Assembly (NCBI RefSeq): GCF_003611735.1 | Contig: NZ_RAWG01000081.1 | Coordinates: forward strand, 1 to 32,392 | Length of the DNA: 32,392 nt | Origin: Corallococcus sicarius | GTDB taxonomy: Bacteria > Myxococcota > Myxococcia > Myxococcales > Myxococcaceae | Reading direction: 5' to 3' | In this document: positions 6,307 to 23,316 of the stretch, piece after piece | How positions within the stretch are numbered: position 1 is the stretch's first letter | How the letters are laid out: every line of letters starts with the position of its first letter | Translations under genes and position numbers: made by a program | Notes under the pieces: generated by a model | Told to the model about the DNA's origin: nothing | What the model saw: the letters and a program-made list of their open reading frames with translations, nothing else | The model's database searches: none

Positions 6307-6312
6307 ATGAAA

Positions 6313-6346
6313 AACGGGCCGCTTCCCCAGTGGGAAGCGGCCCGTT
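6313..6346. terminator. Bidirectional stem-loop terminator between convergent genes (15-bp perfect stem AACGGGCCGCTTCCC/GGGAAGCGGCCCGTT, 4-nt loop)
   Basis: A perfect inverted repeat sits directly after the transporter stop and 44 nt from the stop of the convergent lipoprotein gene. Confidence 0.55.
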
Positions 6347-6389
6347 CCTTCAAGGCCTCTCAGAAGCCGGACGCCCCAGGAGGCGCCGC

Positions 6390-8009
6390 TCAGTCCTTCG
6401 TGCAGACGACGTCATCGACCTGGAGGTGGTCGCGGTCGGCCGCGCTGCGGCTCGGATAGAGGAGCAGGCGCCAGTCGCGCACGTTGCCGGTGAAGCGGAA
6501 GAACACCGGCTGCCACGCGTCACTGTCCACGGCGATGAAGTCGGTCTGCGGGCTCCAGCCGCCGCTCGAATAGGTGCGATGGCGGATGGTGCCGTGGCCT
6601 CGCACCCGATACGAGCAGGAGTAGTTTCCGCTCGGGACGTTGAACTTCTCGCTGGAGAAGCGTTCGGCCACCTGGATCGGGACCACGAACTGCAGCGCCC
6701 TCGAACCACCGTGCACCGCGGTCGTGTAGGGCAGGAGGCGCGTGGGTTTGATTTCAGTGCCCGGGTCGGAGACGCCGTTGTCGATGCCGTACCAGAAGTC
6801 GGGGAGGTAGTGGTTCCCGTAGTACGGGATGGAATAGGTGTTCCAGCTTTCAAACCCACCATTGCGGATGATGTTCGAGGGGTGGGCGGCGGAGACGCAG
6901 CGCCGGGTTGCCGCGTCGCAGGCAGGCAGCGCACCGCGACAGTCGTAGGTGGTGAAGCAGGCCCCTTCCGCCAGCTCGCACACGCCGGTCGTGGGATTGC
7001 AGCTCGTCGCCGGGTTGCTGCAGGTGACGCCAGCGCAGGGGTCGCCCGCGATGCAGAGGTGCGTGGCGTAATCGCAGACCGGCGTCTGCGGGGTCCCCGC
7101 GCAATCCGCGTGACGGGTGCAGCGATCCTCGGCGACCACGCAGGTGTGGGTGGCATCACAGGTCTGCCACTCGCTGCAATCCGTGGCGTCCTGGCAGCGA
7201 CCGGAGAGCGGCTCGCAGGTCGCGGTGGCATTCACGCAGCGCGCCCACGACTCGCAGCTGATCGCATCACACGGCTCGACGGCCCGCACGCAGCGAACAT
7301 CGTCGATGGACAGATGCTCCCCGCTGGTGCTCCGGACGCTGAAGATGAGCTCGAAGGTGTCGAAGACATCAGCGGCGAGGTTGAAGTTGTACGCCAGCTT
7401 CTTCCACTCCTTGCTGTCGACCCGGGTGTAGGCCGAGTAGGTGGAGTAGTCGTCGTCGAAGAAGGCGTTTCGCACTTCACCGGTGCCCCGCGCCTGGTAG
7501 GTGCAGGAGTAGCGGCCCGCGCGCATCGACTTCGCCAGGGTGCTGAAGCGCAGGTGCGAGGTCGAAGGGTTGGTCAGCCGGGCCGCGTTCACGCCTTCAA
7601 AGGCATTCGTCGTCTCCCGCCCCACCCCGTCGGTGGTGATGTCCGACGTGCTGCCGTACCACTTCGTCGGAACCGCACCGGGCCATTCTTCAAAGCCCCA
7701 GTTGTCGATGACGTTCCCCGCGGGAACCTCGCCCGCGTCCGGCGTCCCCGAACCTGCATCGGGCGTCCCGGAGCCTGCGTCCGGCGTCTCCTGGCCTGCG
7801 TCCGGCGTCTCGGTACCTGAATCCGGCGTCTCCTGGCCTGCGTCGGGCGTCTCCTGGCCTGCGTCGGGCGTTCCGGCACCTGCGTCCGGCGTCTCGGCAC
7901 CTGAATCCGGCACGGACTGGCCGGCATCAGGGGGCACCTCTGGTTCCGAACCACCGCAGGCGGTCACCAAGAGCAGCAGCGAAGCCAGACACACTCGAAA
8001 CAACGTCAC
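6390..8009 (-). CDS. Secreted lipoprotein with N-terminal (E/G)TPDAG(Q/S) heptad repeats and two jelly-roll-like modules (CBM4_9-like NxGFE starts) separated by a Cys-rich linker
   Basis: The lipoprotein signal is MTLFRVCLASLLLLVTAC. There are about 9 heptad repeats. Two modules begin NVIDNWGFEEWPG and NIIRNGGFESWN. Between them lies a Cys-rich region (CxxxxC spacing, about 24 Cys). Confidence 0.65.
   Translation of the reverse strand: MTLFRVCLASLLLLVTACGGSEPEVPPDAGQSVPDSGAETPDAGAGTPDAGQETPDAGQETPDSGTETPDAGQETPDAGSGTPDAGSGTPDAGEVPAGNVIDNWGFEEWPGAVPTKWYGSTSDITTDGVGRETTNAFEGVNAARLTNPSTSHLRFSTLAKSMRAGRYSCTYQARGTGEVRNAFFDDDYSTYSAYTRVDSKEWKKLAYNFNLAADVFDTFELIFSVRSTSGEHLSIDDVRCVRAVEPCDAISCESWARCVNATATCEPLSGRCQDATDCSEWQTCDATHTCVVAEDRCTRHADCAGTPQTPVCDYATHLCIAGDPCAGVTCSNPATSCNPTTGVCELAEGACFTTYDCRGALPACDAATRRCVSAAHPSNIIRNGGFESWNTYSIPYYGNHYLPDFWYGIDNGVSDPGTEIKPTRLLPYTTAVHGGSRALQFVVPIQVAERFSSEKFNVPSGNYSCSYRVRGHGTIRHRTYSSGGWSPQTDFIAVDSDAWQPVFFRFTGNVRDWRLLLYPSRSAADRDHLQVDDVVCTKD
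7731..7931. repeat. Tandem 21-bp repeats (about 9 copies, consensus GCGTCCGGCGTCTCCTGGCCT on the + strand) encoding the TPDAG heptads
   Basis: Near-perfect periodicity is visible by direct reading at 7741-7920. Confidence 0.7.
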
Positions 8010-8125
8010 AGCGGGCCTCCATTTTCAGGAAATGTCCGCTCGTACCACACCTCCCCCGTGTAGGGGGCGTGACGGGGAGTGTGAGGACACCGCGCGCCCG
8101 GAGCCCTGGGCGCGCGGTGGGACCC

Positions 8126-8536
8126 TCAGAACGAACGAACCAGCGTCCAGCTGTTGTTGTCGAAGCTGGGCACCGCTGAATACCGGCAGCTGCTGCTGTA
8201 GTACGAACTGACGATCGACCATCCGGAAGGCGGGGACCACGATGAGCAGGCGTTGACTCGCGTCCCGATGGGGTAGCCGGTGAGCTGCTTCATCTGCTTG
8301 CTGTTCGGGGAGAAGGTGCTGCCACAAGCGCCGCTGTTCCACCACTGGACGTCCACCCAGCCAGAAGGCGTCATGGTGCTCGAACAGACGTTGACCGTGT
8401 CCCCTGCCGCCGCCTGCTCCTGATTGGCAAGCCTGGAGTCCTCACCTTCGTCGCCAGGGCCGGCACCGCAACCCGCGACAGCCATTGCCAACGCCGCACT
8501 GAACAGCACTGCGCCTGCAAACCTGCGATTCGACAC
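8126..8536 (-). CDS. Small secreted Cys/Trp/Ser-rich lipoprotein (about 136 aa) with atypically low GC3
   Basis: A candidate GTG start gives the lipoprotein signal MSNRRFAGAVLFSAALAMAVAGC; the track ORF extends to 8623 with alternative ATG starts. There are internal repeats (PSGWVDVQWWNSGACGS / PPSGWSIVSSYYSSSC, NNSW). Many codons end in A/T, unlike the neighbouring genes. Confidence 0.45.
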   Translation of the reverse strand: MSNRRFAGAVLFSAALAMAVAGCGAGPGDEGEDSRLANQEQAAAGDTVNVCSSTMTPSGWVDVQWWNSGACGSTFSPNSKQMKQLTGYPIGTRVNACSSWSPPSGWSIVSSYYSSSCRYSAVPSFDNNSWTLVRSF

Positions 8537-8637
8537 GGTACCCCCACGATTGAGCTGGTTTGGCACTTCCAAAACGCCAGACATATCGCCGAAAGTCTGC
8601 ATTGTTGGAATACGTGGGAACACTTAGCAAAGAACAA

Positions 8638-8665
8638 GCCCAGCAACCTTGTGAGGTTGCTGGGC
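8638..8665. terminator. Stem-loop terminator (11-bp perfect stem GCCCAGCAACC/GGTTGCTGGGC, loop TTGTGA) downstream of the protease gene
   Basis: A perfect inverted repeat lies about 45 nt after the S8 protease stop on the minus strand. It is followed by an AT-rich stretch acting as promoter region for the small lipoprotein gene. Confidence 0.5.
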
Positions 8666-8710
8666 CCCTGGACTTGGACTTCCAGTCTGACGTCGCGGTG
8701 TCGGCGAGGA

Positions 8711-10705
8711 CTACCGGGTGATGTTCAGCGCGGTGTCATCAACGAAGAAGCTGGTCTTCAGCGACGAGTCCTCCGTGCCGTTGAAGTAGATGCGGACGGT
8801 CTGGCCCTTGTACGCGGCCAGGTCGAAGGTCCGCTGCACGTAGGCCGTGCCCTTGTTCAGGTTGCTGTAGGTGGCCAGCGTCGCCAGCACCGTGCCCGCG
8901 CTGTTGCGGACCTGGATGGCCAGCTTGTCGTAGGCCGTCGAGCTCGTGGTCTCCGACGTGGTGATGAGCGTCCAGAAGCTGAGCGTGGCGCTGCACGCCG
9001 TGGAGGGGATGGTGATGTCCTGGTAGGCGAACTCGGTGAGCGTGCTGCCGGCGCCGTTCAGGAAGGCCTTGTACGTGCCCGTGCGCGGCGCGCTGCCCGT
9101 CGTGGTGCCGTCGATGACGCCCGACGAGGTCGTCCAACCCGTGTTGCCGCTCTCGAAGCCCTCGTTGACCAGGAGCTGCTCGGAGATGGCGCAGCTGCCC
9201 GTGCCGTTGTTCACCGTCACCGACACCGTGCCCGACGTGCCGATGTTGTTCGCCGCGTCATACGCCTTCGTGGTCAGCGCGTAGGTGCCGTTGGCCACCG
9301 ACGTGGTGTTCCAGGCGATGCTGTACGGCGCGGCCGTCGCCGTGCCCAGCAGCGAGGTGCCCGCGTAGAACTCCACGCGCGCGACGCCCACGTTGTCGGA
9401 GGCGTTGGCGCTCACGCTCGCGGTGCCGCTCAGCGTGGAGCCGCCCACGGGCGCGGTGATGGACGTCGTGGGCGGGGTGGTGTCCGTGCCGCCGCCACCG
9501 GTGATGAAGAGCGTGTACAGCAGCTTGTTGGGCGAACCGGTCCCCGGGCTGGTGACCTTGTTCGGCGTGGAGTTGTTCACCAGCGCGTCCCGCACCTCCG
9601 CGGGCGTCGCGGAGGGGTTGGCGCCCAGGTAGAGCGCCGCGGCGCCAGCCACGTGCGGCGAGGCCATGGACGTGCCGCTCATCGAGGTGCTCGACGTGTT
9701 GCCGGAGTTCGAGGCCGAGGTGATGCTCGAGCCCGGCGCGAAGATGTCCACGCACGTCCCGTAGTTGGAGAACGACGAGCGGGCATCGCTGCTGGTGGTG
9801 GAGCCCACCGTGATGGCATTGGGCGCACGGGCCGGCGAGTAGTTGCAGGCGTTGGCGCTGTCGTTGCCAGCGGCGACGACCGTCGTGACGCCCGCGGCGA
9901 TCATCCGCTGCGTCGCATCATCGATGGCCGGGATGGCGACATCGCCCAGGCTCATGTTGGCGACCGCGGGCTTGATGTGGTTTGCCGCCACCCAGTCCAT
10001 ACCGCCGATGACCTGCGCGTCGTTTCCGTAGCCCGTGCAGTCGAGCACGCGAACGCCGTGGAGGGTGACCTTCTTCGCCACGCCCCAGGTCGTGCCGCCC
10101 ACCGTGCCCGCCACATGCGTGCCGTGGCCATGGCAGTCCGTGGGGTCGCTGTCGTTGTCGATGAGGTCGGAGCCGTTGCCGATGCGACCGGTGAACTCGG
10201 TGTGGGTCAGCCGGATACCCGTGTCGATGACGTACGCATGCACGCCGGTGCCGTCGACGTTGTAGGTGTAGGAGCTGTTGCGCGGCAGGTCACGCTGGTC
10301 GATGCGGTCGATGCCCCAGGTGGCGCTGGTCTGCGTCGCAGACAGGCGGATCACGCCGTTCTCCTGCACATACGCCACGCGGGGGTCGGACAGGAGGCGC
10401 TGGGCCTCGGCCTCGCTCATGGACGCGTGGAAGCCGTGGATGGTGTGCTGATAGGTCCGCAGCACCCTGCCCCCGTTGAGGGACACCAGCTCCTGGGCGA
10501 TGTTCGCCGCCCCCTGCTGCCGGACCTCCTGCGTGGAGTCACGCAGGACGACGATGTACTCGCCGGGGACGGCCCGCTCACGGCGGATCATCTGCGCCGT
10601 GTGACCGAACTGCTCGCCGTCGGACTCCTGCGCCTCCGGCATCGGGCCGCATGCCGCGGCCAGCAGGGAGATGGCACTCACCGCCTGGGTCAGTTTCAGT
10701 TTCAT
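8711..10705 (-). CDS. Secreted subtilisin-like serine protease (peptidase S8) with I9 propeptide, lipoprotein signal, and C-terminal Ig-like plus jelly-roll (NxGFE) domains
   Basis: The start is MKLKLTQAVSAISLLAAACG. The catalytic triad motifs are D (YVIDTGI), H (HGHGTHVAGT) and S (GTSMASPHVAG). The C-terminal module begins LLVNEGFESGNTGW, like the modules in the 6390..8009 lipoprotein. The long track ORF to 11917 is an upstream read-through, not coding. Confidence 0.85.
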   Translation of the reverse strand: MKLKLTQAVSAISLLAAACGPMPEAQESDGEQFGHTAQMIRRERAVPGEYIVVLRDSTQEVRQQGAANIAQELVSLNGGRVLRTYQHTIHGFHASMSEAEAQRLLSDPRVAYVQENGVIRLSATQTSATWGIDRIDQRDLPRNSSYTYNVDGTGVHAYVIDTGIRLTHTEFTGRIGNGSDLIDNDSDPTDCHGHGTHVAGTVGGTTWGVAKKVTLHGVRVLDCTGYGNDAQVIGGMDWVAANHIKPAVANMSLGDVAIPAIDDATQRMIAAGVTTVVAAGNDSANACNYSPARAPNAITVGSTTSSDARSSFSNYGTCVDIFAPGSSITSASNSGNTSSTSMSGTSMASPHVAGAAALYLGANPSATPAEVRDALVNNSTPNKVTSPGTGSPNKLLYTLFITGGGGTDTTPPTTSITAPVGGSTLSGTASVSANASDNVGVARVEFYAGTSLLGTATAAPYSIAWNTTSVANGTYALTTKAYDAANNIGTSGTVSVTVNNGTGSCAISEQLLVNEGFESGNTGWTTSSGVIDGTTTGSAPRTGTYKAFLNGAGSTLTEFAYQDITIPSTACSATLSFWTLITTSETTSSTAYDKLAIQVRNSAGTVLATLATYSNLNKGTAYVQRTFDLAAYKGQTVRIYFNGTEDSSLKTSFFVDDTALNITR

Positions 10706-10882
10706 TCGGCCTCTCAGGGAACGTGCGGGCACCGGGTCGGAAGCCCTCGCACAGCCCGTGGAATTAGCTTTTCTTGCTAGCGCGGTCAACCCGGCTTTCA
10801 TGGGGAAGCCCGCATGGGCCTCCGGGTTCACATTTCGCGGTGTGACGCCGGGGGACGAAGCCCGGCGGATAGACTTGAGGCC

Positions 10883-11935
10883 GTGAGCCACTTCCCGACC
10901 GCCCTCCCCTCCGTTGAAGCCATTGCCCTGCGCGGAGGCCCGGTGCTGCGTTGGGGCGTGCTCGCGCCCGGACGGATCGCGGGAGGCTTCGTCTGGGCCC
11001 TGCATCAGCACACCGACCAGCGCGTCCACGCGGTCGCCTCGCGGGATCCCGAGCGCGCGCAGCGCTTCGCCGCCACCTACGGCATCCCACACGTCCACGG
11101 GTCCTACGAGCAGCTCGTCGCCGACCCGCACGTCGACATCGTCTACGTGGCGTCTCCGCACAGCGAGCACAAGCGACAGGCCCTGCTCGCCATCGCGGCC
11201 GGCAAGCACGTCCTCGTGGAGAAGCCCCTGGCGCTCGACGCTGGCGAGGCCCGGGAGATTGCCCGGGCCGCTCGCGCCGCGGGCGTCTTCGCGATGGAGG
11301 CCCTGTGGTCGCGCTTCCTCCCGCAGACGCTGATCATCGAACGGCTGCTGCGCGACGGCGTGCTCGGAGACCTCCGGCTCGTCACGGCGGACTTCGGTGG
11401 CCGCTTCGAGTTCGATCCCGAAGGCCGCATCTTCAACCCCGCGCTCGGCGGCGGAGCCCTGCTGGACCTCGGCATCTATCCCATCTGGCTTGCGCACTTC
11501 GCGCTCGGCCCGCCTCCGCGGGTGCACGCCACGGGCTCGCTCGCCGAGACGGGCGTGGACGGCCAGGCGGCGCTCATCCTCACCTACGCCACGGGCGCCC
11601 AGGCGCTGCTGCACACCACCCTCTTCGCCGAGACGCCCCAGGAGGCGGTCATCGCGGGCACGCACGCGCGCCTCCAGCTCGACTCGCGCTTCTTCACGCC
11701 CGGCGGCTTCACGTTGAAGGCCGCGAGGTCGGAGCAGCGGCTGCGTTGGGCCGACCCGTCCGGCATCCACGGCAGCGAGGGCCTCGCCTACCAGGCCGCC
11801 GCGGTCGCACGACACATCGGCGAGGGCCAGACGGAGTCGCCGTTGCATCCGCTCGAGCACAGCATCGCCTTGCTCGAGACCATCGACGCGGCGCGCGGGC
11901 AACTTGGCGCCACCCACTGGAGGGACCGCGAATGA
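10883..11935 (+). CDS. Gfo/Idh/MocA-family NAD(P)-dependent oxidoreductase
   Basis: The N-terminal Rossmann segment reads LRWGVLAPGRIAGGFVWAL. EKP and other typical GFO_IDH_MocA features are present (VLVEKPLALD). The start could instead be the ATG at 10814. Confidence 0.7.
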   Translation: MSHFPTALPSVEAIALRGGPVLRWGVLAPGRIAGGFVWALHQHTDQRVHAVASRDPERAQRFAATYGIPHVHGSYEQLVADPHVDIVYVASPHSEHKRQALLAIAAGKHVLVEKPLALDAGEAREIARAARAAGVFAMEALWSRFLPQTLIIERLLRDGVLGDLRLVTADFGGRFEFDPEGRIFNPALGGGALLDLGIYPIWLAHFALGPPPRVHATGSLAETGVDGQAALILTYATGAQALLHTTLFAETPQEAVIAGTHARLQLDSRFFTPGGFTLKAARSEQRLRWADPSGIHGSEGLAYQAAAVARHIGEGQTESPLHPLEHSIALLETIDAARGQLGATHWRDRE

Positions 11936-13131
11936 GATACCTCCTGCTGCTCCTGATCCCCCTGCTTTCGAGCTGTGCCTCGCCCTCCAAAGGCGCGGTG
12001 GTACAGGAGCCCGTGGCGGTCTCCGATGAAGACCGGATTGTTCGTGACCTCTGCGACAAGAGGCTTGCGCTGCTGGGCGAGGAAGGCCACCACGGCAATG
12101 CCAGGACCATCGCCTTCAAGGCAGCACTGATCCGCAGGCTCGTGGAGGAGTGCCACTACGATGCCTTCTTCATCGAGACAGGCGCCTATGACTTCCTCCA
12201 CCTCCAAGCGCAGCTGAAGGCGGGCCAGCCCGTCAGCGAGGCCCAGGTCACGGCTGGGATTGGCGGGATGTGGGCGAATCAGGAGATGGCGCCCCTGATT
12301 CCATTCCTGACCGAGCGGCTCAACGCGGGAACCCTCGTCGCCGGTGCGATCGATGATCAGCTCAACAGGAGCACCTACGCACAGACGCAGATGCCGCGTG
12401 AGCTCATCCCCTACCTGGACGGCCCGAGGCAGGCCGAGTGCGGACCGGAGATCGAGCGGAACATGACATGGCAGTACGACGAAGCCCACCCGTTCACGGT
12501 GGAGACCGCGAAGCGCATCCTGGGCTGTTGGAAGGAGCTGGCGGCTTCGCCACTGGGAACTCCGGAGCAGTTGCAGATGGTCCGCAACCTGGAACGGAGC
12601 TTCACCCGGAAGGTCGCCATGATGTCCCGGCCTCCGACGCCGTCCGGAGCAACCTGGACCCTGGATGACGACAACGCGCGGGAGCGCTCCATGTTCATGA
12701 ATCTGGAGTGGCTCCTGTCCCAATCACCCAGGCCCCGGAAGGCCATTGTCTGGCTTGCCACCCTCCATGCAGCCAAAGACCTCAAGGGCCTGGGTACGAA
12801 CAGGCAACACCCGACGACCTTCGGTTCCTATGTCCAGGAGAAGTTCGGGGCGCAGGCCTTCGTGCTTGGCTTTTCCGCGCTCTCCGGAAGCTATTTCACG
12901 GGCATGGACGGTCGCGCCAGGGTCATCCCGCCCGCGCTGGCAGACTCCCTGGAGGGCCTGGCGTTCTCAGGCCACACCGGGGACACCCGGTATCTGGATG
13001 CGAGCCAGCTTCGTGCGTTCGGGCCCAAGAAGGCCCGTCCCTTCGACTACGTGTGGATCGAGGGCCCCTGGGCAACGGTCATGGATGGGCTGCTGATCTT
13101 CCGGGAAGAAGCGCCCCCGCGCCCCCTCTGA
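11932..13131 (+). CDS. Lipoprotein of the erythromycin-esterase / ChaN-Tiki-TraB-like superfamily (putative hydrolase)
   Basis: An ATGA overlap joins it to the upstream oxidoreductase. The lipoprotein signal is MRYLLLLLIPLLSSC. LLGEEGHHGNARTIAFKAALIRRLVEECHYDAFFIETG resembles the GExxHG motif region of Ere-family esterases. Confidence 0.5.
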   Translation: MRYLLLLLIPLLSSCASPSKGAVVQEPVAVSDEDRIVRDLCDKRLALLGEEGHHGNARTIAFKAALIRRLVEECHYDAFFIETGAYDFLHLQAQLKAGQPVSEAQVTAGIGGMWANQEMAPLIPFLTERLNAGTLVAGAIDDQLNRSTYAQTQMPRELIPYLDGPRQAECGPEIERNMTWQYDEAHPFTVETAKRILGCWKELAASPLGTPEQLQMVRNLERSFTRKVAMMSRPPTPSGATWTLDDDNARERSMFMNLEWLLSQSPRPRKAIVWLATLHAAKDLKGLGTNRQHPTTFGSYVQEKFGAQAFVLGFSALSGSYFTGMDGRARVIPPALADSLEGLAFSGHTGDTRYLDASQLRAFGPKKARPFDYVWIEGPWATVMDGLLIFREEAPPRPL

Positions 13132-13145
13132 ACCGACAGCCGCTG

Positions 13146-13976
13146 CTAGTAGCCGACGTAGCCGGTGCCGCTGTTGAGGTTCTTGATGCCCGGGACGTTG
13201 GACACCGAGCCGTAGCGGTCCACCGCGTAGCGCACGGCCGCGGCGATGTTGTCCACCGGGTTGCGGATGTCGTCGTGGCCGGGGAGCTTGTGCGCGTCGA
13301 ACGTCGGCTGGATGGTCTGCATCAGGCCGATGGACGGGGTGCCCTTCTTCGCGTTGTCGTCCGTGAGGTTGATGGCGCTGGGGTTGCCGCTGGACTCGTG
13401 CTCGATGATGCGGGCGATGTCCTGCGCGTTCATCTTGTCGGCCGGGATGCCCGCGGCGGCGAGCAGCTTCTGCGCCTGCTTGATCCAGTCACCCACCTGG
13501 CCCTGAGGAGCCGGACCCGTAGAGCCGGCCGCATCGGCGGCCCCGGCCTGGTACGAATCACCCGCGCTCGACGGGCCGCCCGCGCTCGCCGCGCCTTCCG
13601 CGCTCGGAGCACCTTCCGCGCCCGACGAAGCCTCGACGCCCTCCTCGCCGCCCAGGGAGGGCGCTTCACCGATGCCGTTGGCCTGGAGCATCTCGGTGAG
13701 CTGCTCCAGCTCCTTCACCATCTCGTTGAGGCCCTCCATGAACTTCTTGAACTGCGCCCCCTGCTGGGGGCCCGCGCTGAAGCCATCCTGCTGGAGCTGA
13801 GCCGCCACGTTCGACTGGGGCTTGCAGCCACCGGCCCGGATGCTCGGGGCGGACAGGCCTTCAGGCCGCGAAGCAATGTCCTGCGTGGGGCGGCGGATGG
13901 TGGCGGAGTGGTTGGACAGGGGCGAGAGGGCCATGGGATTTCCTCGGGAGAGTGAAGGGGACTGCATGACCAACAC
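13146..13976 (-). CDS. Lytic transglycosylase (SLT-domain) protein: N-terminal disordered Gly/Ala/Ser-rich region, C-terminal SLT domain, no signal peptide
   Basis: SLT catalytic motifs are IEHESSGNPSAIN ... GLMQTIQPTF ... AAAVRYAVDRYG. The first 150 aa are low-complexity and no hydrophobic signal sequence is present. The start is uncertain; MALSPL near 13934 is plausible. Confidence 0.65.
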   Translation of the reverse strand: MLVMQSPSLSRGNPMALSPLSNHSATIRRPTQDIASRPEGLSAPSIRAGGCKPQSNVAAQLQQDGFSAGPQQGAQFKKFMEGLNEMVKELEQLTEMLQANGIGEAPSLGGEEGVEASSGAEGAPSAEGAASAGGPSSAGDSYQAGAADAAGSTGPAPQGQVGDWIKQAQKLLAAAGIPADKMNAQDIARIIEHESSGNPSAINLTDDNAKKGTPSIGLMQTIQPTFDAHKLPGHDDIRNPVDNIAAAVRYAVDRYGSVSNVPGIKNLNSGTGYVGY

Positions 13977-14171
13977 CTACAGCAGGAGACATGCCAACCC
14001 TGCGGCGGGCGCCCGTCGCAACCCAAGTGCCTGATATCCCTGAGGTGAACCTCCGCCTGGCCTCGAAGCACGCGGCGCGGCGGCGCAAACCGGGCTCCCT
14101 TCCCTGATGACTCGAGTCATCGCCCGCTGACCGCGGTCACCAGCAGCCTTTGGCGACCGTGACCGGCTCGG

Positions 14172-14215
14172 CGTTCTCTGGGCCCGGGGGGCCCCGGGGG
14201 CCCCGGGGGCCCATG
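14172..14215. repeat. GC-only palindromic run (GGGCCC/GGGGGCCCC)n in the intergenic space between two minus-strand hydrolase genes; hairpin-forming, possible terminator
   Basis: ctgggcccggggggccccgggggccccgggggccc is self-complementary. It lies about 75 nt downstream of the stop of the 14288..15907 gene. Confidence 0.3.
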
Positions 14216-14287
14216 AAGAAAGCCCGGTCGGCCCCCTGAGAAGGAGGGCCGCCGGGCCGGTTCTTCACGTGTGGGAGGCTGAGGCGA

Positions 14288-15907
14288 CTACCCGTTGCGG
14301 CGCACCATCGCGACGTCGAAGCGGCGGTCCGTCACGTAGCCCTCGGCGGACTTGCCGGGGCGGGTCATCCCGCCCGTCTTCTCGTCCACGTAGAAGCGGT
14401 TGTTGGGGTTGGTGTCCTTGCCCTTGCTGGCGTTGGTCGTCCCCGGGTCGTGGAACGTGTAGTAGGTGCGGCCCTTGTCGTCCACGCCACGGCCCGTGAT
14501 GGTCACGAAGTGATCCGTGAGCCCGTCCGCGTTGTACGACGCGTCCTTGTGGCTGACGCCCACCACCACCGGCTTGCCGGCGTTGAGCTGCTGGTCGATG
14601 TAGTTGCGGCCCTCGGCGGCCTTCTTGGAGTTCACCGACAGCTGGCCCGTGCTGTTCTCGCTCGTGCCCACCTGGATGCGCTTGTCCGGGCCCGTGACGT
14701 TCGCGCCGACCTTGCCCGCCATCGCCTTCGCGGCGTCGAAGCACGCGGTCTTGCTCGGGGTGAAGCCGTGGCCCCCCTCGAACTGGCTGTAGTACGGCAC
14801 CTTCACGTGGACCGCGGGGCCCGACTTGGAGGGCGCCACGTTCTGCGTGTCATTGAGGTCCACTTCCGTGGTGGGCTTCTGCGAGTTGGCGCCCGACGTG
14901 GAGCCGGAGTTGCTCGTGGACGGCTTCGTGCCACCCGTCGTGTTGCTCGTGGCCGGCTTCGTGCCACCCGTCGTGGTGCTCGGGGTCGTGGTGCCGCCCG
15001 CCTTCTCGTTCTTGAGCAGCGCGAGCGCGTCCTTCGACTCGTTCTTGAAGCGGTTGGCCACGCCCTCCTGCATGCTCTTGGAGCTGCTGGAGAAGTGCAC
15101 CAGGTTGCCGCTCGAGTTCGTGCGGCCGCGCTCGGCGTAGATGTCCTTGATGAGCTGCTCGTCGCTCACCTTGGCGGGATCGCGGCCGGCCAGCGCCTTC
15201 TTGAAGATGTCATCCGCCTTGCCCGGCCCGTGCTGCACGGACGTGGACCAGGCCACATCGCGCAGCGCCGCGGAGCGCGTGTTCAGGTCGATGCCCGTCG
15301 CCTTCTTGATGTTCGCGGCGCCCGGCTCGTAGTGCGTGGCCTGGATGTAGTCGTGCTGCGCCTTGTCGAAGCCCTTGGGGTCCTTCGCCGCGAGCTGCTT
15401 CCACGCGTTGGAGAACGCCTCCGAGCCCGGCTTGCTGCCCGACAGCGCCGAGTGGTACTCGGGGTGGCTCTTCTTCAGCGAGTTCACGAACGACTGCGCG
15501 GACCCGTTCGCGGACGCGAACTGGTAGGAGCCGTAGGACACGCCACCGTGGTCGCCCTTGCCCGTGGACACCGTGCCGGGACCGCGCGCCTCGTACTTGC
15601 GGCTCAGCCCGCCCAGCTCACCGCCGCCCGCGGGCGCCGTCGTCTGCTTCGTGGTGTCCGTCGCCTTCGTCCCGCCCGTGTTGGACGTCGCCGGCTTGGA
15701 GGTGGTGCTGGTGGCCGGCTTCGTGCTCGTGCCGCGCGCGGGCTTCGTGTCGAAGCCGTCCGGGATGCGCAGCGTCTGGCCCGCGCGGATGCGGTCCGGG
15801 TCCTTGATGTTGTTGGCCTTCACCAGCGCCTTCACCGTCGTGTCGTTGCGCTTGGCGATCGCGGAGAGGGTGTCGCCCGAACGGACGCGGAGGCTGGAGA
15901 CGGTCAT
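14288..15907 (-). CDS. Multidomain peptidoglycan-targeting protein: N-terminal LysM, Thr/Ser/Lys/Gly-rich linkers, central conserved domain of unknown identity, C-terminal C39-like (papain-fold) peptidase; no signal peptide
   Basis: The LysM domain is VRSGDTLSAIAKRNDTTVKALVKANNIKDPDRIRAGQTLRIP, placed right at the N-terminus. The C-terminal domain reads VPYYSQFEGGHGFTPSKTACFDAAKAM ... DHFVTITG, with Cys and His consistent with the Peptidase_C39_2 type. The central domain reads GDHGGVSYGSYQFASANGSAQSFVNSL... Confidence 0.65.
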   Translation of the reverse strand: MTVSSLRVRSGDTLSAIAKRNDTTVKALVKANNIKDPDRIRAGQTLRIPDGFDTKPARGTSTKPATSTTSKPATSNTGGTKATDTTKQTTAPAGGGELGGLSRKYEARGPGTVSTGKGDHGGVSYGSYQFASANGSAQSFVNSLKKSHPEYHSALSGSKPGSEAFSNAWKQLAAKDPKGFDKAQHDYIQATHYEPGAANIKKATGIDLNTRSAALRDVAWSTSVQHGPGKADDIFKKALAGRDPAKVSDEQLIKDIYAERGRTNSSGNLVHFSSSSKSMQEGVANRFKNESKDALALLKNEKAGGTTTPSTTTGGTKPATSNTTGGTKPSTSNSGSTSGANSQKPTTEVDLNDTQNVAPSKSGPAVHVKVPYYSQFEGGHGFTPSKTACFDAAKAMAGKVGANVTGPDKRIQVGTSENSTGQLSVNSKKAAEGRNYIDQQLNAGKPVVVGVSHKDASYNADGLTDHFVTITGRGVDDKGRTYYTFHDPGTTNASKGKDTNPNNRFYVDEKTGGMTRPGKSAEGYVTDRRFDVAMVRRNG

Positions 15908-16100
15908 GGAGGAACCTTCATGTCAGGCCGCGAACACAGGGGTCGCGGACGTGATTGGATATTTGCGGTGATTATCGTCGGGCAGTGCAGGCAGTTTCCC
16001 ATTCTCAGTCACAATCATGTCAAACCAGTGATTCCAGCAACTTCAGTTTCAGCGGATAAATCCACCGATACTGAAGAAACCGACCAGGAGACCTACCCGG

Positions 16101-17144
16101 ATGCGCAAAATCCAACCCAAATTCAAAAATGTGTCAATGCTGCTCGCCCTGGGCCTTGCAGCTGCGGTCTCGAATGCCTCAGCGCAGGGGTCTGACGGAC
16201 TCACGGGTCTTTATTCCAAGGACGGCGGCGCACTGGCCATCGTCGAGGGAAGCAACGAGACGCTGATCCACTACTCGGCCGGTTTTCCGCAGGGCGACAG
16301 TGTGGGCACGTGTGACTGCGCGCTCGTCGTGCAACGCAAGACGCCCACGCGCTGGACGCTGAACGTGGCCGGAGAGAAGGAGCCCTGGACGCTGCGCGTC
16401 GAACCCCAGCGGCTGGTGCTGGAGACGAAGGCGCCCACCTGCTGTGGCGCGGGCTACCCGGGCAAGGACTCCTTCACGCGGGGCACGCCCCAGCCGCTGA
16501 CCATCTGCAAGGTGAAGGCGTCCAAGGCGGGCTTCTTCGCGTCGGACGCGGCCAACACGCCCCGCAAGACGTTCGTGGTGTCGGGCGACGCGGTGGAGGT
16601 CTACCTGGATCCGGTGGAGCCGGACCTCATCCCCGCGCGCTTCCAGGGGCCCCAGAAGGCCACTGCCGGGCTGATCAAGCGCGCGGACCTGGACTGCGCG
16701 GCGGATACCGCCCCCTCCAAGGCGCCCCAGACGGCGCAGGCGCCCATCGCGGCCGACAAGCTCCAGCCCTTCGCGGGCACCTGGGTGGAGTTGACGCGCA
16801 AGGGCAAGGGCTTCGTCATCCTCAAGCCCTGCTCGGCCCAGAACCGCAGCTTCACCGTCAAGCCCGCGACGGGCGAGGTGGTGGTGCAGTTGGGGCAGGA
16901 GGCGACGACGCTGAAGGTGACGTCACTGGAGCCCGGCAAGGGCGCCGGGGCCTGGGTGCTGGGGCTCACGTCCGCGGCGGGCAAGCCGGAGGCGCTCCAG
17001 TGGAAGACGGCCGACGCGGCGAAGGGCACCGTGTCGGTGACGAGCCCGGACCTCTTCTCCCAGAGCCATGACTACGTGCGCCAGGAGAAGCAGTCCGCGT
17101 TCCCGGTGAAGCAGGAGACCGGCTGCGACGAGTACGAGCAGTAG
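16101..17144 (+). CDS. Secreted hypothetical protein with signal peptide and several paired Cys residues
   Basis: The signal peptide is MLLALGLAAAVSNASAQG, with an alternative start at 16137. It is divergent from the LysM-peptidase gene across an AT-richer 190-bp promoter region. I recognise no family. Confidence 0.5.
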   Translation: MRKIQPKFKNVSMLLALGLAAAVSNASAQGSDGLTGLYSKDGGALAIVEGSNETLIHYSAGFPQGDSVGTCDCALVVQRKTPTRWTLNVAGEKEPWTLRVEPQRLVLETKAPTCCGAGYPGKDSFTRGTPQPLTICKVKASKAGFFASDAANTPRKTFVVSGDAVEVYLDPVEPDLIPARFQGPQKATAGLIKRADLDCAADTAPSKAPQTAQAPIAADKLQPFAGTWVELTRKGKGFVILKPCSAQNRSFTVKPATGEVVVQLGQEATTLKVTSLEPGKGAGAWVLGLTSAAGKPEALQWKTADAAKGTVSVTSPDLFSQSHDYVRQEKQSAFPVKQETGCDEYEQ

Positions 17145-17148
17145 CGAC

Positions 17149-18187
17149 TCAGGCGGGGGTGCCGTCCGGCTTGGAGGCGTTGCCGGCCGACAGGCGGGGC
17201 GCGCCTCCCGGGCCCAGCAGCCCCTGCATGGCGTCGAAGAGGTTGAGGTTGGCGCCGCTGGGGAGGAAGACGACCTTGTCCAGGCCGCCCACGACGGCGG
17301 CCTGGGCCTGGGCCGCGACGGCCTTCACGAAGTTCTCCCCTCCCCCCAGCGCCTCCACGCGCTGGCGGAACTGCGAGGCCTCCACCTCGGCGAGTCGGGA
17401 CTGGCGCTCCACCTCCAGGTCGTTTGAGGCGCTGCTGCCGCTCCAGGGCCATCTGGGTGGTGAGGCGCTCGCGCTCCAGCTCCGCCTCGGAGCGGATGCG
17501 GGAGGCCCGCGCGTCGGACTCGGCGCGGGCCAGGGCCTCCTCGCTCTCCACGCGCGCCTTCTCCAGCTGCGCCTCCGCCTCCGCCTCCACCTTGGCGCGG
17601 CTGAGCGTTTCGAGCTGGTGGTTGCGGTTCTGCAGCTCGATGAGGGACTGGCGCTCCGCCTCCGACTTGCGGTGGCTGGCGATGTCCGCGAGCTGCTTCT
17701 CCTCCTCGCTGCGGATGCGCTTGAGTTCGGCGGCGGCCTGCGCTTCCTGGCGTGAGGCGTCCAACTGGATCTGGATGTTGGTGTCGATGACCTCGCGCAG
17801 CTTCAGGGCCGTCTTCTCGTCGACGGGCGCGATGTCCTTGATGTCGATGTCGATGATGCGCAGCTGGTTCTCGGAGAAGAGCCGGTCCTTGCGAGCGCGG
17901 CCCGCGTCGTCCATGCCGAAGATGGCGCGGCGGATGAGCACGCTGGCGTTCTTGTGGAAGGTCTCGAATTCGTTCTCCGCGGCCACCTGGCGGATCCGCG
18001 ACGCGAGGTTCTCACACACGTACCCGATGAAGTCGTTCACCCGGAAGATGGCCTTGTCCTTCTCCGCGTCGCCCTGCACGTCGAACTGCCACTTGTAGGA
18101 GAGCTTGATGCGCAGCCGCGCGAGGTCGCGTGTGGCGACCTCGAAGAGGTCCGTGGCGAAGTCCGGCCCCAGCCGCAGCATCAGCAA
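17149..18187 (-). pseudogene. Flotillin/SPFH (band-7)-like gene remnant: 5'-truncated (no SPFH N-terminus or TM) and frameshifted near 17422-17426
   Basis: The track ORF 17072..18187 encodes YKWQFDV ... VNDFIGYVCENLASRIR plus an EA-rich coiled coil (EAEAEAQLEKARVESEEALARAE), then decays into Pro/Gly/Arg junk. The true continuation (ERQSRLAEVEASQFRQRVEALGGGENFVKAVAAQAQAAVVGGLDKVVFLPSG) lies in ORF 17149..17412 in another frame. The shift is at the run rendered caaacg. No upstream SPFH domain exists before the lipase gene at 18287. Confidence 0.5.
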
Positions 18188-18286: not shown

Positions 18287-19180
18287 CTACCGCGCGCTCA
18301 GCTCCTCCACTGTCCACTCGTCGGCGGAGAGGCCGGCGCTGAAGCCGAAGGCGGCGGACACGAGGTCATGGCCGTAGTCCGCGAAGATGCGGTGGCTGTA
18401 GCTCGTGGGGTGGAGCCCATCCCAGAACAGGTACGTGTCGGGGTTGACCGCCTTGCCCTTGCAGGTGCCGGTGACGTTCGTCAGCCCATACGAGGACGGC
18501 GACGCGATGATGGCGTTGAACTGGTTGAAGGCGTTCATCCCGATGAAGGTGACGGACGGGAAGTCCTGGCGCAGCTTCGTCAGCGATTGCGCCCACAGGG
18601 TGTTGAACTGGCTGGTGGGAGGCGCCAGCACGGTGGTGCCCAGGCCGCCCGGGACTGACAGGGCCGCGGGCGTCTTGTTCAAGGGCGGCAAGTTGACCCA
18701 GAGGATGCGCTTCGCGCCCGCCGCGACCAGCTTGCGGATCTGCCCATTGATGTTGGAGACGGCCGTCGTCGCCGCGGCCTTGATGCCGGCCGAGTCGAAC
18801 GGGTTGGCCTGGGCCTTGTAATTGATGTCATTGCCTCCGCCCCAGAGGACGTACAGCGCCGTGGAGGACGCCGTCGGTTGGGCCGCCAGGTAGTTGTTCA
18901 CCTGGCTGGTCATCCCGCTGGTGACGGCGCCGCCCCGGGCGTAGTTCGTGCCGCCGTTGTCGGACGCGGTCAGGGGCAGGCCCAGCTGCGTCGCGAGCTG
19001 CTTCACCCAGGTGCCGGAGATCTGGCTGGAGGGATTCGTCGTCGGACCGCTGGTGGCGATGCCGTTGTTGCCGTTGTCACTCAGGCTGTCGCCAAAGACG
19101 ACGATGCTGCTCTGCGCGCCAGCGTGGAACGGGAGGAGGACGGCCAGGAGGGCCGAAAGCAACAGGAAGGGATGCTTCAT
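18287..19180 (-). CDS. Secreted GDSL/SGNH-family lipase or esterase (paralog 1)
   Basis: The signal peptide is MKHPFLLLSALLAVLLPFHAGA, followed by the block I motif VVFGDSLSDNGN. GGGND is a block III-like motif. The start is estimated from the track (MKHPF). Confidence 0.75.
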   Translation of the reverse strand: MKHPFLLLSALLAVLLPFHAGAQSSIVVFGDSLSDNGNNGIATSGPTTNPSSQISGTWVKQLATQLGLPLTASDNGGTNYARGGAVTSGMTSQVNNYLAAQPTASSTALYVLWGGGNDINYKAQANPFDSAGIKAAATTAVSNINGQIRKLVAAGAKRILWVNLPPLNKTPAALSVPGGLGTTVLAPPTSQFNTLWAQSLTKLRQDFPSVTFIGMNAFNQFNAIIASPSSYGLTNVTGTCKGKAVNPDTYLFWDGLHPTSYSHRIFADYGHDLVSAAFGFSAGLSADEWTVEELSAR

Positions 19181-19221
19181 GGTGGGCTCCGGGTTGAGAC
19201 AGGGTTTTTTGTTCGCTCCAC

Positions 19222-20115
19222 CTACTGCGCGCCCCACTCCTCCGCGGTCCACTCCTCGGCCATGAGGCCGGGGCTGAAGCCGAAGGCGGCGGAGACCTGG
19301 TCGTACGCCTGATTCGCGAAGATGCGGTGGGCGAAGCTCGTCGGGTGGATCTCATCCCAGAACAGGTACCGGTCCGGGTTGACGTTCTTGCTCTTGCACG
19401 TGTCCGTGACGTTCGTCAGTCCATACGAGGACGGCGACGCGATGATGGCGTTGAACTTGTTGTAGGCGTTCAGCCCGATGAACTTCACGGTCGGGAACTC
19501 GGTGCGCATCCGGGTGATGGACTGGACCCAGAGCGTGTTGAAGTGCGTGCTGGGCGGTCCGAGCAGGGCGTCGCCCAGACCGAACGGGATGGACCGCGCC
19601 GCGGGCGTCTTGTTGAGCGGCGGCATGTTCACCCACAGGAAGCGCTTCGCGCCCCGGGCGACGAGCTTGCGGATCTGCCCTTCGATGTTGGAGACGGCCG
19701 TCGTCGCAGCGGCCTTGACGCCGGCCGTGTCGAACGGGTTTTCACGCGCCTTGTGGTGGATGTCGTTGCCGCCGCCCCAGAAGACATACAGCGCCGTGGG
19801 GGACGCCGTCGGGTTGCTGCTGATGTAGGCGTTCACCTGGTTCGTCATGTCCGCGGTGACCGAGCCGCCCTGCGCGTAGTTCGTGCCCCCTTCGTCGGAG
19901 GCCACGAGCGGAAGGTCCAGCTGGTCCGCGAGCTGCTTCACCCAGGGGCCGGAGATCTGGCTGGAGGGATACGTCGTCGGACCGCTGGTGGCGGTGCTGT
20001 ACTTGCCGTTGTCACTCAGGCTGTCGCCAAACGCGACGATGCTGCTCTGGGCGCTCGCGTGGAACGGAAGGAGGATGGCCAGGGCGGCCGAAAGCAACAG
20101 GAAGGGATGCTTCAT
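19222..20115 (-). CDS. Secreted GDSL/SGNH-family lipase or esterase (paralog 2, tandem duplicate)
   Basis: The N-terminus is almost identical to paralog 1: MKHPFLLLSAALAILLPFHASAQSSIVAFGDSLSDNG. There is a 41-bp spacer to paralog 1. Confidence 0.75.
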   Translation of the reverse strand: MKHPFLLLSAALAILLPFHASAQSSIVAFGDSLSDNGKYSTATSGPTTYPSSQISGPWVKQLADQLDLPLVASDEGGTNYAQGGSVTADMTNQVNAYISSNPTASPTALYVFWGGGNDIHHKARENPFDTAGVKAAATTAVSNIEGQIRKLVARGAKRFLWVNMPPLNKTPAARSIPFGLGDALLGPPSTHFNTLWVQSITRMRTEFPTVKFIGLNAYNKFNAIIASPSSYGLTNVTDTCKSKNVNPDRYLFWDEIHPTSFAHRIFANQAYDQVSAAFGFSPGLMAEEWTAEEWGAQ

Positions 20116-20238
20116 GTGGGGGGACTCCAAAGGGGGGACACAGACGCTTGGCGCACTGTGTCACCCGCTTCGGAGCTTTTCCACGAGTTTCTACACTTCC
20201 TTGTTTTATTCTGGATGTTTCAGCTGGCTCAGCCCGTA

Positions 20239-21565: not shown

Positions 21566-21778
21566 GGGGCGCGGGAGGATGGGGGGCCAGTGCCGTGGCG
21601 TCAAGGCACTCGGGGTGGCTGGACGCCAAGGCCGTGGGAATAGCCAGCGAACCCGGCCGTTGCGCGCCCGTCGTCCCTGCCCGGTCGCCCCCGGGCCGTC
21701 CACCCGTGTACGCCCGCCCGTCCCCGCCGGCCGGAAACCATGACACTCCCAGGCACGCGACATACGGTGGCCGCCGCC

Positions 21779-23272
21779 ATGCGCCGCGCCCCCGTCCTCG
21801 TCAGCGTCTCCACCGTCTGTGTCCTGCTGTCCGCCTGCGCCCACGCGCCTCCCGGGTCGGAGGCGGCTCCCGGGCGCACCCTGCCCGACGTCACCCGCTC
21901 CCTGCTGGAGACGCTGGAGGCCGACGGCGCGCTCGCGGGCGCGTACGTGGTGGACGCGCGCACCGGCGAGCCCCTCTTCAAGCACCGGGAGAACGTGCGG
22001 CTCCTGCCCGCGTCCACGATGAAGGTGGTGTCCACCTCCGCGGCGCTGTCCGCGCTGGGGGCGGACTTCCGCTTCGTGACGCCGGTGTCGCTGGAGGGCT
22101 CGCAGGTGGGGGGCCTGTTCCTGGGCGACATCGTGGCGCAGGCCTCGGGCGATCCGTCCCTGGGCTCATGGCGCTTCCCGGAGACGGCCCTGGCGTGTGA
22201 GCGCATCGCGGAGGCGCTCCAGGCGCGCGGCATCCACCAGTGGCGCGGCAGCGTGCGCATCGCCGGCACGGACGGCGTGGACGGCCTCATGGGGCCGGGC
22301 TGGGCCTGGGATGACGCCGCCTACGCCTACAGCGCGGCGCCCACCCCGTTCGTCTTCCGCGAGAACGTGGTGGACCTGGCCCTGGCCCGCGCGCCCGGCT
22401 CCACCTGCGCGGACGCGCCCGCCGTCCAGTGGACCCCCACCTTCGCCACGCTGTCCGCCGTGGTGCGCGTGGACGTCAACGCGGACCGCACCAACCTCTC
22501 CTGCATGCGAGCGGGCCCGGGCGTGAGCTGCACGTGGCGCTCTCCCCCCGGAGGCCCCTGCCCCCAGGCCGCCGCCGTGAAGCTGGCCGTGGAGGCGCCG
22601 CAGGACCTGTTCGCCGCGTGCGTGGACGACGCGCTGGCGCGCCACGGGGTGACGCGGCTGCCGCTCACGCTGGAGGCGCCCACGCCGCCCCTGCCCCCGG
22701 TGCCGGTGCCGCTGGTGGAGCTGATGAGCCCGCCCCTGTCGGAGCTGGTGCGCGTGACGAACAAGGAGAGCCTCAACCTGTACGCGGAGCGGCTGGGCAT
22801 GCGCTTCGCGCGCGAGCGCACCGGCCAGGAGGGCTACGCCGCGCTGAGGACGGCGCTGGTCGCGGAGCTGCAGCGGCGCGGGGTGCCGCCCAAGGACCTG
22901 CGCCCGGTGGATGGCAGCGGCCTGTCCCGCTACAACCTGGCCACGCCCCGGGGCATGGCGCGCGTGATTCTCACCAGCCTCCAGGAGCCCTATGGACAGG
23001 CGCTGGTGGACAGCCTGCCGGTGCTGGGCGTGGACGGGACGCTGGCGGGACGGCGCACGACGCAGGCCACCGCGGGCCGCGTCCGCGCGAAGACGGGGAC
23101 GCTGACCGGCCAGAAGTGTTTCGTGGGCGTGGCCGAGCGCCCCAACGATCCGGAGCACCCACGCGTCGTGTTCGCGTTGATGCTCGGCAACATGGACGAG
23201 GGCACGAAGCCCAACGCCAACGAAGCCTTCGATCTCTTCTCCACCGCCCTGGTGGAGCTGCCCCTGCGCTGA
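21779..23272 (+). CDS. dacB: D-alanyl-D-alanine carboxypeptidase/endopeptidase (PBP4, peptidase S13, DacB-like), lipoprotein
   Basis: The signal is MRRAPVLVSVSTVCVLLSAC. The SxxK active-site motif is PASTMKVVSTSAAL. Its length and C-terminal region are consistent with PBP4. Confidence 0.7.
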   Translation: MRRAPVLVSVSTVCVLLSACAHAPPGSEAAPGRTLPDVTRSLLETLEADGALAGAYVVDARTGEPLFKHRENVRLLPASTMKVVSTSAALSALGADFRFVTPVSLEGSQVGGLFLGDIVAQASGDPSLGSWRFPETALACERIAEALQARGIHQWRGSVRIAGTDGVDGLMGPGWAWDDAAYAYSAAPTPFVFRENVVDLALARAPGSTCADAPAVQWTPTFATLSAVVRVDVNADRTNLSCMRAGPGVSCTWRSPPGGPCPQAAAVKLAVEAPQDLFAACVDDALARHGVTRLPLTLEAPTPPLPPVPVPLVELMSPPLSELVRVTNKESLNLYAERLGMRFARERTGQEGYAALRTALVAELQRRGVPPKDLRPVDGSGLSRYNLATPRGMARVILTSLQEPYGQALVDSLPVLGVDGTLAGRRTTQATAGRVRAKTGTLTGQKCFVGVAERPNDPEHPRVVFALMLGNMDEGTKPNANEAFDLFSTALVELPLR

Positions 23273-23316
23273 TGAAGCCAGGGCACGTCACAGTGCACAT
23301 CGATGCGAGGTGAACC

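Follow-up and report, generated by a model that had tools for sequence, protein, structure and literature searches.

A leaderless LysM-muramidase-peptidase of Corallococcus sicarius and its divergently encoded two-module partner, a probable wall-lysing effector and its immunity protein

In the myxobacterium Corallococcus sicarius, two adjacent genes code for peptidoglycan hydrolases without a signal peptide, and a divergently oriented gene beside them codes for a secreted cysteine-containing protein. The question raised by this locus is whether such hydrolases are effectors delivered to other cells, and what part the secreted neighbour plays. The locus lies in a 32,392-nt contig of C. sicarius (the whole stretch analysed, called the window below), where the genes were mapped by frame analysis of GC3 (GC content at the third codon position) combined with Pfam scans. 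Gene A (13146-13934, minus strand; Pfam SLT) codes for a leaderless 262-aa SLT lytic transglycosylase. Gene B (14288-15907, minus strand; GC3 0.97, Pfam LysM and PF21277) codes for a leaderless 539-aa peptidoglycan hydrolase of three parts. Gene C (16101-17144, plus strand) codes for a secreted 347-aa all-beta protein, which is proposed to be a fused double immunity protein. All three are genuine genes with GC3 values of 0.89-0.97. Comparison of their sequences with known systems and with related loci indicates that B and C probably form a bifunctional wall-lysing antibacterial effector and its fused double immunity protein, with A standing outside this unit.

The initial annotation described A and B as minus-strand peptidoglycan hydrolases devoid of a signal peptide and C as a secreted Cys-containing protein. 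Both descriptions were confirmed, for A and B by Pfam and PDB matches, upstream stops and low hydropathy, and for C by a Sec signal and eight invariant Cys residues. In B, a stop codon is located 5 codons 5' of the ATG. The maximum Kyte-Doolittle value over the first 80 residues (11-residue window) is 0.5 in A and B vs 2.55 in C, and no lipobox is present in A or B. A and B are considered to lack a signal peptide because stop codons lie directly upstream and the N-termini are not hydrophobic. Extension of the open reading frames as a way of revealing hidden signal peptides was ruled out by the same stops, so that the leaders which corrected starts might have exposed are not possible in either gene. 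In the great majority of the 120 listed homologues of B, and in every full-length one, LysM follows Met and a few residues; the remainder start with different sequences that likewise lack a leader, and a signal peptide is absent from all 120. Housekeeping periplasmic transglycosylases and autolysins carry a Sec or lipoprotein signal for export, and such a signal is absent from A and B and from their listed homologues.

The reading of B as a LysM-X-C39-like peptidase stands, and the unnamed X is a PF21277 muramidase of the VgrG3 type. LysM occupies residues 7-49 directly after the initiator Met (15761..15889, minus strand; PF01476, 60.8 bits, E 1e-16). The VgrG3-type muramidase domain with the chitosanase fold takes up residues 98-290 (15038..15616, minus strand). 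It matches PF21277 (T6SS_VgrG3-like_C) with 180.1 bits vs a cut-off of 27 (E 6e-53, profile positions 1-182 of 183), and phmmer aligns it at E 9.5e-26 with 4NOO_A, the C-terminal domain of Vibrio cholerae VgrG3 (4NOO/4NSO). Residues E106 (KYEAR) and D119 (KGDHGG) of B align with YES...GDYGG of 4NOO and are conserved in at least 90% of the homologues (n=20); by analogy with GH46-like enzymes, these two residues are presumably the catalytic acids. Residues 366-538 (14294..14812, minus strand) form a C39-like Cys peptidase with the papain fold, similar to the C-terminal domain of BtaeB (phmmer, 9JDD_A/9JG8_C). The match to 9JDD_A, the 'Peptidase C39-like' chain of PDB entries 9JDD/9JG8, has an E-value of 1.9e-22 and places 'TACF' over 'VACY' and 'TDHFV' over 'TDHFI', which keeps the Cys/His pair. 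C389 is the sole Cys in B, and C389, H466 and D487 are conserved together with E106 and D119 in 20 B homologues of six genera. PF13529 (Peptidase_C39_2) does not match B at E <= 0.1, the only hit being BtrH_N at E 0.084, and some B homologues carry faint precomputed PF13529 matches. Pfam detects no gp27, gp5 or VgrG domain in B.

Since both catalytic domains are homologous to solved toxins of type VI secretion system (T6SS) effectors (4NOO, 9JDD), B looks like a delivered effector and not like a housekeeping autolysin. The suggestion that the hydrolases of this locus are delivered effectors thus holds for B through the homology of its toxin domains, while A and B as a functional pair are contradicted by the synteny and by a hairpin between them, both considered below. 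The linkers of B are Thr/Gly/Pro-rich and are encoded by tandem 33-nt repeats at 14909-14974 and 15678-15726 ('GGTKPATSNTT'). Similar repeat units are found in both linkers, and the linkers differ in length among homologues, which range from 487 to 585 aa.

The N-terminus of C is MRKIQPKFKNVSMLLALGLAAAVSNASA followed by QG. Residues 1-28 (16101..16184, plus strand) constitute a predicted Sec signal peptide with an n-region containing K3, K7 and K9, an h-region MLLALGLAAAV with the Kyte-Doolittle value of 2.55 and no lipobox Cys, the cut falling after ASA and before QG. The A-x-A-Q cleavage motif and 8 Cys are invariant across the C family. Due to the Sec signal and these 8 Cys, C is expected in the periplasm. 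The protein has no sequence match in Pfam, NCBIfam, PHROG, PADLOC or PDB. Its AlphaFold2 model (pLDDT 79, pTM 0.69) is all-beta, with a barrel at residues 36-130, an SH3b-like part at 134-193 and a second barrel at 218-345. Module 1 (residues ~34-200; 16200..16700, plus strand) combines the first barrel and the SH3b-like part, contains 6 Cys and is proposed to be an inhibitor of the VgrG3C muramidase (the muramidase domain type of B). Module 2 (residues ~215-345; 16743..17135, plus strand) is an 8-stranded lipocalin-like barrel proposed to inhibit the C39-like peptidase.

When 1.84 billion representative proteins were searched with a profile, 137 relatives of C emerged, and the protein was split into module 1 (positions ~12-202) and module 2 (~207-342). 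Module 1 alone makes up many secreted proteins of ~200 aa with signal peptides, and module 2 alone occurs in secreted proteins of 155-180 aa. As each module is also found stand-alone, C is a fusion of the two. Module 1 represents an undescribed family with no sequence match in Pfam, NCBIfam or PDB. Module 2 shares 12% sequence identity with BtaiB, the immunity protein of BtaeB. A Foldseek search with the C model returned Tp0751 first; BtaiB was not in the top 50, so the BtaiB match was not reproduced. C is not an immunity protein of the TsiV3 type.

The association of B with C was followed in one genome per species, which gave 24 C loci, and the domains of A, B and C were searched against them by tblastn. 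A leaderless LysM/C39-like hydrolase is divergently adjacent to C in 21 of the 24. Eighteen of the loci contain a full B orthologue, divergent and ~190 bp away (Corallococcus, Archangium, Cystobacter, Pyxidicoccus, Myxococcus sp.). In C. terminator, M. qinghaiensis and M. eversor (L021-23), the divergent partner is instead a leaderless hydrolase composed of SLT, LysM and Peptidase_C39_2; C is 34-38% identical there, and the partners pass PF13529 with 57-60 bits. Two loci end at a contig edge, and two have C without a B-type gene. The order of B, C and the following gene with a major vault protein (MVP) shoulder domain is stable in eight species-level Corallococcus loci (L003-L010). The initial annotation had suggested C as an immunity or partner protein, and the effector-immunity reading is upheld for B and C by the conserved divergent pairing and the modularity. 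A Hyalangium metagenome-assembled genome (L016) and an uncultured deltaproteobacterium (L017) encode C homologues of full length (44-46% identity) in regions devoid of B-type genes. Here C adjoins a gene for an FHA/sigma-54 activator and may represent an orphan immunity gene.

The divergent promoter region between B and C comprises 193 bp (15908..16100). The hexamer ATTATC at 15971-15976 (GATAAT on the B strand) lies 64 nt 5' of the B ATG. It is identical in nine of ten aligned B-C intergenic regions from Corallococcus, Archangium, Pyxidicoccus and Myxococcus, and the Cystobacter sequence has ATCATC with one mismatch. From its sequence and position, this hexamer may function as the -10 element for transcription of B. 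A scan of the B-C intergenic region for consensus sigma-70 promoters found nothing.

The modules of C can be related to the individual toxin domains. A gene with module 1 only (P0271) overlaps by 4 bp the 3' end of a gene for a 668-aa PF21277 (VgrG3C) protein, which gives the classical layout of toxin followed by immunity gene. A gene with module 2 only (P0278) is divergent to a gene for a 242-aa protein consisting of the peptidase only and 64% identical to the C-terminal domain of B. This peptidase-only B derivative (4202-4930 of locus L037, minus strand) still carries degenerate traces of LysM, 'MSPKSLVRSSDASSAIARPHRTTI', and of the beginning of the muramidase, 'GPNSASTGKSDRRGVS'. The traces mark the L037 gene as the product of a naturally occurring internal deletion, in which loss of the muramidase was matched by loss of module 1 from the partner gene. 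The toxin domains themselves are found in changing company. VgrG3C occurs with LysM, WXG100, PG_binding_1, M23 or unrelated leaderless N-termini, and the C39-like domain with CHAP or other N-termini. With toxin domains being shuffled and immunity modules apparently tracking them, B-C resembles polymorphic toxin-immunity systems.

Several facts weigh against this interpretation of B and C. Immunity genes are normally situated downstream of the toxin gene and on the same strand, and the divergent layout of B-C is atypical. The link of module 1 to the muramidase is proposed on the basis of one adjacency and one co-deletion. The stand-alone module-1 gene P0274 (L045) follows an unrelated, apparently LeuD-like fragment; P0286 (L038), also with module 1 only, is on a contig too short to judge. 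In metagenome scans for stand-alone module-1 loci, the single-protein scan returned none and the last scan only 6 loci. Module 1 is kept in L021-23 (41% identity; ~30% for module 2) though SLT replaces VgrG3C there. M. xanthus has a LysM-X-C39-like protein without a C-like neighbour, as confirmed by tblastn, and no C-like neighbour accompanies a 301-aa leaderless LysM+VgrG3C protein in metagenome contigs L027-L031. The 301-aa protein suggests that some members with the LysM+VgrG3C architecture are housekeeping proteins or otherwise different in role. Pfam scans of all genes in the window revealed no secretion-system genes. Furthermore, an intact B-C pair is kept by strain EGB, C. coralloides, C. 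exercitus, C. interemptor, C. aberystwythensis and C. carmarthensis, in which no T6SS was reported (PMC8466578).

The gene for the 301-aa protein directly follows the alanine racemase gene (alr) near dnaB and ribosomal protein genes, and the contigs are possibly acidobacterial. Assignment of the M. xanthus paralogue to the predation-induced LysM gene MXAN_0418 was dropped, as the neighbours mismatch.

Gene A requires separate consideration. It contains the SLT domain (13149-13502, minus strand; PF01464, 46.4 bits, cut-off 21.3) with 'EHESSGNP', where the Glu of the E-S motif is residue 180. Upstream of this domain are a Gly/Ala/Ser-rich linker (13503-13661, minus strand) and a family-specific N-terminal region of ~90 aa (13662-13934, minus strand). 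Translation starts at the ATG at 13934 ('MALSPLSN', common to all homologues) and not at the GTG at 13976. The homologues of A open with a conserved Ser-rich motif or with LysM, and the SLT domains of A and of myxobacterial LysM+SLT proteins (~205 aa) share 65-80% identity. The extreme N-terminus is conserved in the family as M-[AS]-[IL]-S-P/I-[LS]-S-x-[RS]..[FY]-R.P, after which an amphipathic helix, FKKFMEGLNEMVKELEQLTEMLQ, follows. The N-terminal region may serve for export or chaperone binding. The leaderless N-terminus of the VgrG3C protein P0072 is laid out in a similar way; homology to that of A was considered and not established, the pairwise E-value being 0.002 and the profile giving only E 0.13 with ~400 sequences, which is not significant.

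The adjacency of A and B on the same strand could mean that they are cooperating effectors, or that the region is a lysis cassette derived from a prophage. The catalytic domains of both do resemble domains of large phage virion proteins (phrog_167, phrog_34863, phrog_26249), that of A being similar to phage tape-measure lytic domains (phrog_167, E 5e-39), and the PHROG matches of A, B and C are confined to LysM and the catalytic domains. However, a terminator-like GC-rich hairpin with UUUCUUC is found directly 3' of the B stop, between B and A (14208..14275, minus strand; RNA fold). Its folding energy is -44 kcal/mol (z -5.7), and none of 200 shuffled sequences folds as well, so that A is presumably on a separate transcript. 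Among the 24 C loci, A is present in one only, that of the closest relative, at 4 kb from B. In C. exercitus, ~1.85 Mb separate the A orthologue from B-C. The surroundings of A differ in every genus examined; its neighbours in Cystobacter and Stigmatella are unrelated, and no partner gene recurs beside it. No holin, capsid, tail, integrase or other phage genes were detected by Pfam scans of the 32-kb window, which contains metabolic and secreted-hydrolase genes only, nor were any tRNA genes, Rfam matches or flanking repeats found there. Together with the stable chromosomal synteny of B, C and the MVP-like gene, this makes both a cooperating A-B pair and a prophage cassette very improbable, and the phage-derived lysis proteins considered in the initial annotation are not supported. 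Since A is missing from most C loci and located in unrelated neighbourhoods elsewhere, the conserved unit is B-C. The comparison of loci indicates that the A-B adjacency is lineage-specific and that A is a solitary leaderless SLT gene outside the B-C unit. The likeness of the A and B catalytic domains to phage virion lytic domains fits modules delivered by injection-type devices.

In the effector-immunity interpretation of B and C, the route of export has to be considered. It is possible, though doubtful, that B is T6SS cargo carried on the Hcp/VgrG/PAAR spike of C. sicarius and injected into the periplasm of neighbouring cells, with C protecting the sisters. A leaderless toxin and a periplasmic immunity protein are established for the Tae/Tai, Tge/Tgi and VgrG3/TsiV3 pairs, and this combination is the hallmark of T6SS effectors acting in the periplasm. 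The closest solved relatives of both toxin domains of B are T6SS effectors as well. A LysM domain is also present in TsxE, a validated T6SS effector of M. xanthus (PMC5801462), and C. sicarius is among the species in which a T6SS was reported (PMC8466578). However, vgrG, hcp, PAAR, adaptor and MIX-type markers are absent from both the window and the related loci L001-L026, and the expectation that homologues would be found near secretion-system or prophage genes was not borne out. The N-terminal region of B is dissimilar to the spike-loading part of BtaeB. The six strains and species mentioned above keep B-C intact while reported to be without a T6SS (PMC8466578). If this survey is right, the T6SS is not an obligatory route, and another leaderless route (needle-less type III secretion system (T3SS*)/Kil, vesicles, cell lysis) is equally possible for B.

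Export of B by T3SS* and/or the Tad-like Kil system for the lysis of prey, perhaps along with A and other leaderless LysM hydrolases, is regarded as unlikely. In M. xanthus, T3SS* is required for prey lysis, and the effectors of T3SS* and Kil are unknown (PMC10433427). Unlike the T6SS, degenerate T3SS clusters were found in all Corallococcus genomes compared (PMC8466578), and LysM genes are induced during predation of M. xanthus (PMC9548883). The disordered Ser-rich N-terminus of A may be added to these points. Since T3SS* has no outer-membrane part, B would have to cross the periplasm of the predator itself, and a periplasmic inhibitor would therefore be needed. On the other hand, T3SS or kil genes are not linked to the pair in any locus examined, B opens with a folded LysM and not with a typical T3SS signal, and the B-C pair is absent from M. 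xanthus, in which Kil and T3SS* were defined. The argument for this route is purely inferential.

B might also be a bulk bacteriolytic enzyme released by means of vesicles, lysis or non-classical secretion, with C acting as a safeguard against leakage. Many hydrolases are released by myxobacteria (PMC10433427), the window itself is rich in secreted ones such as the S8 protease and two GDSL lipases, and for the leaderless LysM-GH19 enzyme of C. silvisoli, non-classical secretion was predicted (PMC10875029). At the same time, the peptidoglycan of a Gram-negative producer that is intact is out of reach for an enzyme acting from outside, which makes a co-inherited periplasmic inhibitor hard to explain. 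No proteomic trace of B was found in the secretome tables of C. silvisoli, whose entries carry no usable names. This possibility is accordingly given a low probability.

The domain homologies, the absence of a leader, the pairing and the modular co-variation of B and C are observed, and from here on we infer the bond specificities, the physical inhibition and the export of the pair. As an effector, B would be synthesized as a leaderless cytoplasmic protein and leave the cell by a dedicated non-Sec route. The N-terminal LysM would then anchor it to peptidoglycan, where the VgrG3-type muramidase domain would cut the glycan strands and the BtaeB-type C39-like peptidase domain the peptide part. 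With both cuts made by one protein, the sacculus would be attacked on both kinds of bond. Sec would export C into the periplasm, both in the producer and in its kin, where up to four disulfides would stabilize it. Its module 1 would neutralize the muramidase domain, and module 2, a possibly BtaiB-like barrel, would neutralize the peptidase domain.

Some parts of this scheme are shared with known systems. In its middle domain, B shares clear homology with the toxin of the V. cholerae VgrG3/TsiV3 pair (4NOO/4NSO) and keeps the Glu and Asp of YE...GDxGG; like VgrG3, it would target periplasmic peptidoglycan and have a secreted protector as its partner. Unlike VgrG3, the toxin part of B is neither fused to a VgrG spike nor found near T6SS genes in the window and 26 related loci. 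The peptidase domain is homologous to that of BtaeB (Bfe7), which is paired with BtaiB in the GA3 T6SS of Bacteroides fragilis (9JDD, 9JG8). BtaeB is described as a GA3 T6SS effector and a 617-aa component of the spike complex, with an adaptor mediating its loading (PMC13402684). Its similarity to B is limited to the toxin domain (B residues 366-511 align), and module 2, unlike BtaiB, forms part of a fusion with another module and is encoded divergently from the toxin. TsxE/TsxI of M. xanthus (MXAN_5572/5571) likewise consists of a myxobacterial LysM effector directed at the cell wall and a dedicated immunity protein (PMC5801462). TsxE, however, has an amidohydrolase-2 domain, and its gene immediately follows vgrG2, with tsxI in the same orientation, whereas B-C has other catalytic domains, no vgrG linkage and a divergent arrangement.

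Leaderless LysM+SLT and LysM+GH19 proteins of myxobacteria resemble B in opening with Met, a few residues and LysM, followed by a low-complexity linker and a hydrolase domain, and differ from it in having a single catalytic domain. No C-like partner was present beside the one LysM+SLT locus examined, L033. At 6001-10812 of this locus (Corallococcus sp. BB11-1), the leaderless LysM+SLT gene is found ~1.8 kb upstream of a weak AHH-nuclease match, which is followed by Imm11 and Imm49; the AHH-nuclease-like gene with Imm11 and Imm49 is a polymorphic-toxin locus. Cleavage of both bonds by one polypeptide is reportedly achieved by Tse4 of Acinetobacter baumannii, a T6SS effector said to be both lytic transglycosylase and endopeptidase, with families differing from those of B. 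To our knowledge, a fused two-module immunity protein matching two toxin domains has not been described for bifunctional peptidoglycan-degrading T6SS effectors.

On the A side of the locus, the window contains genes for a secreted S8 protease (8711-10600, minus strand), a Gfo/Idh/MocA oxidoreductase (10814-11935, plus strand) and an erythromycin-esterase-like lipoprotein (11932-13131, plus strand), all assigned by Pfam and GC3. The gene with the MVP shoulder domain (17149-18187, minus strand; PF11978, E 3e-44) is convergent with C and syntenic in every Corallococcus locus examined. It has one surplus A near 17419-17428 (CTCAAACGAC vs CTC-AACGAC), which puts the last 87 residues out of frame; this frameshift therefore reflects a sequencing error or a pseudogene. 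Two GDSL lipases with signal peptides, which are tandem paralogues, are encoded on the minus strand at 18287-19252 and 19222-20130. An S13 DD-carboxypeptidase (21644-23272) and a prolyl oligopeptidase (23314-25497) are also present, so that the secreted hydrolases of the window comprise the S8 protease, the two GDSL lipases and these two enzymes. PADLOC models of anti-phage defence gave zero matches.

Leaderless wall hydrolases of myxobacteria are built in a combinatorial manner, as LysM+SLT, LysM+VgrG3C, LysM+GH19, A-type N-terminus+SLT and CHAP+C39-like; WXG100+VgrG3C occurs outside the myxobacteria. The LysM+GH19 combination is exemplified by C25GH19C of C. silvisoli (PMC10875029). Effector-immunity pairs targeting peptidoglycan are already well known. 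B is unusual in joining two toxin domains known so far from different T6SS effectors, one of Vibrio and one of Bacteroides, and in that LysM at its extreme N-terminus replaces any known loading domain. What is unusual in C is that the proposed immunity protein is itself a fusion of two modules. In databases, these proteins are now named only 'LysM domain-containing' and 'hypothetical'. As a LysM-anchored wall lysin predicted from its domains to cut two kinds of bond, B may be of practical interest as an antibacterial enzyme. Because B-C is present in species said to lack a T6SS, and the effectors of Kil and T3SS* are unknown, the pair is a tractable candidate for the study of leaderless lytic export. 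It would gain greater interest if it proves to be the cargo of a non-T6SS route. A more far-reaching possibility, quite unlikely at present, is that predatory myxobacteria possess a leaderless export route distinct from the T6SS and that B-C is the first of its effector-immunity pairs to be recognised; if true, leaderless hydrolases with LysM or N-terminal domains, including A, would be the long-sought lytic cargo of contact-dependent predation.

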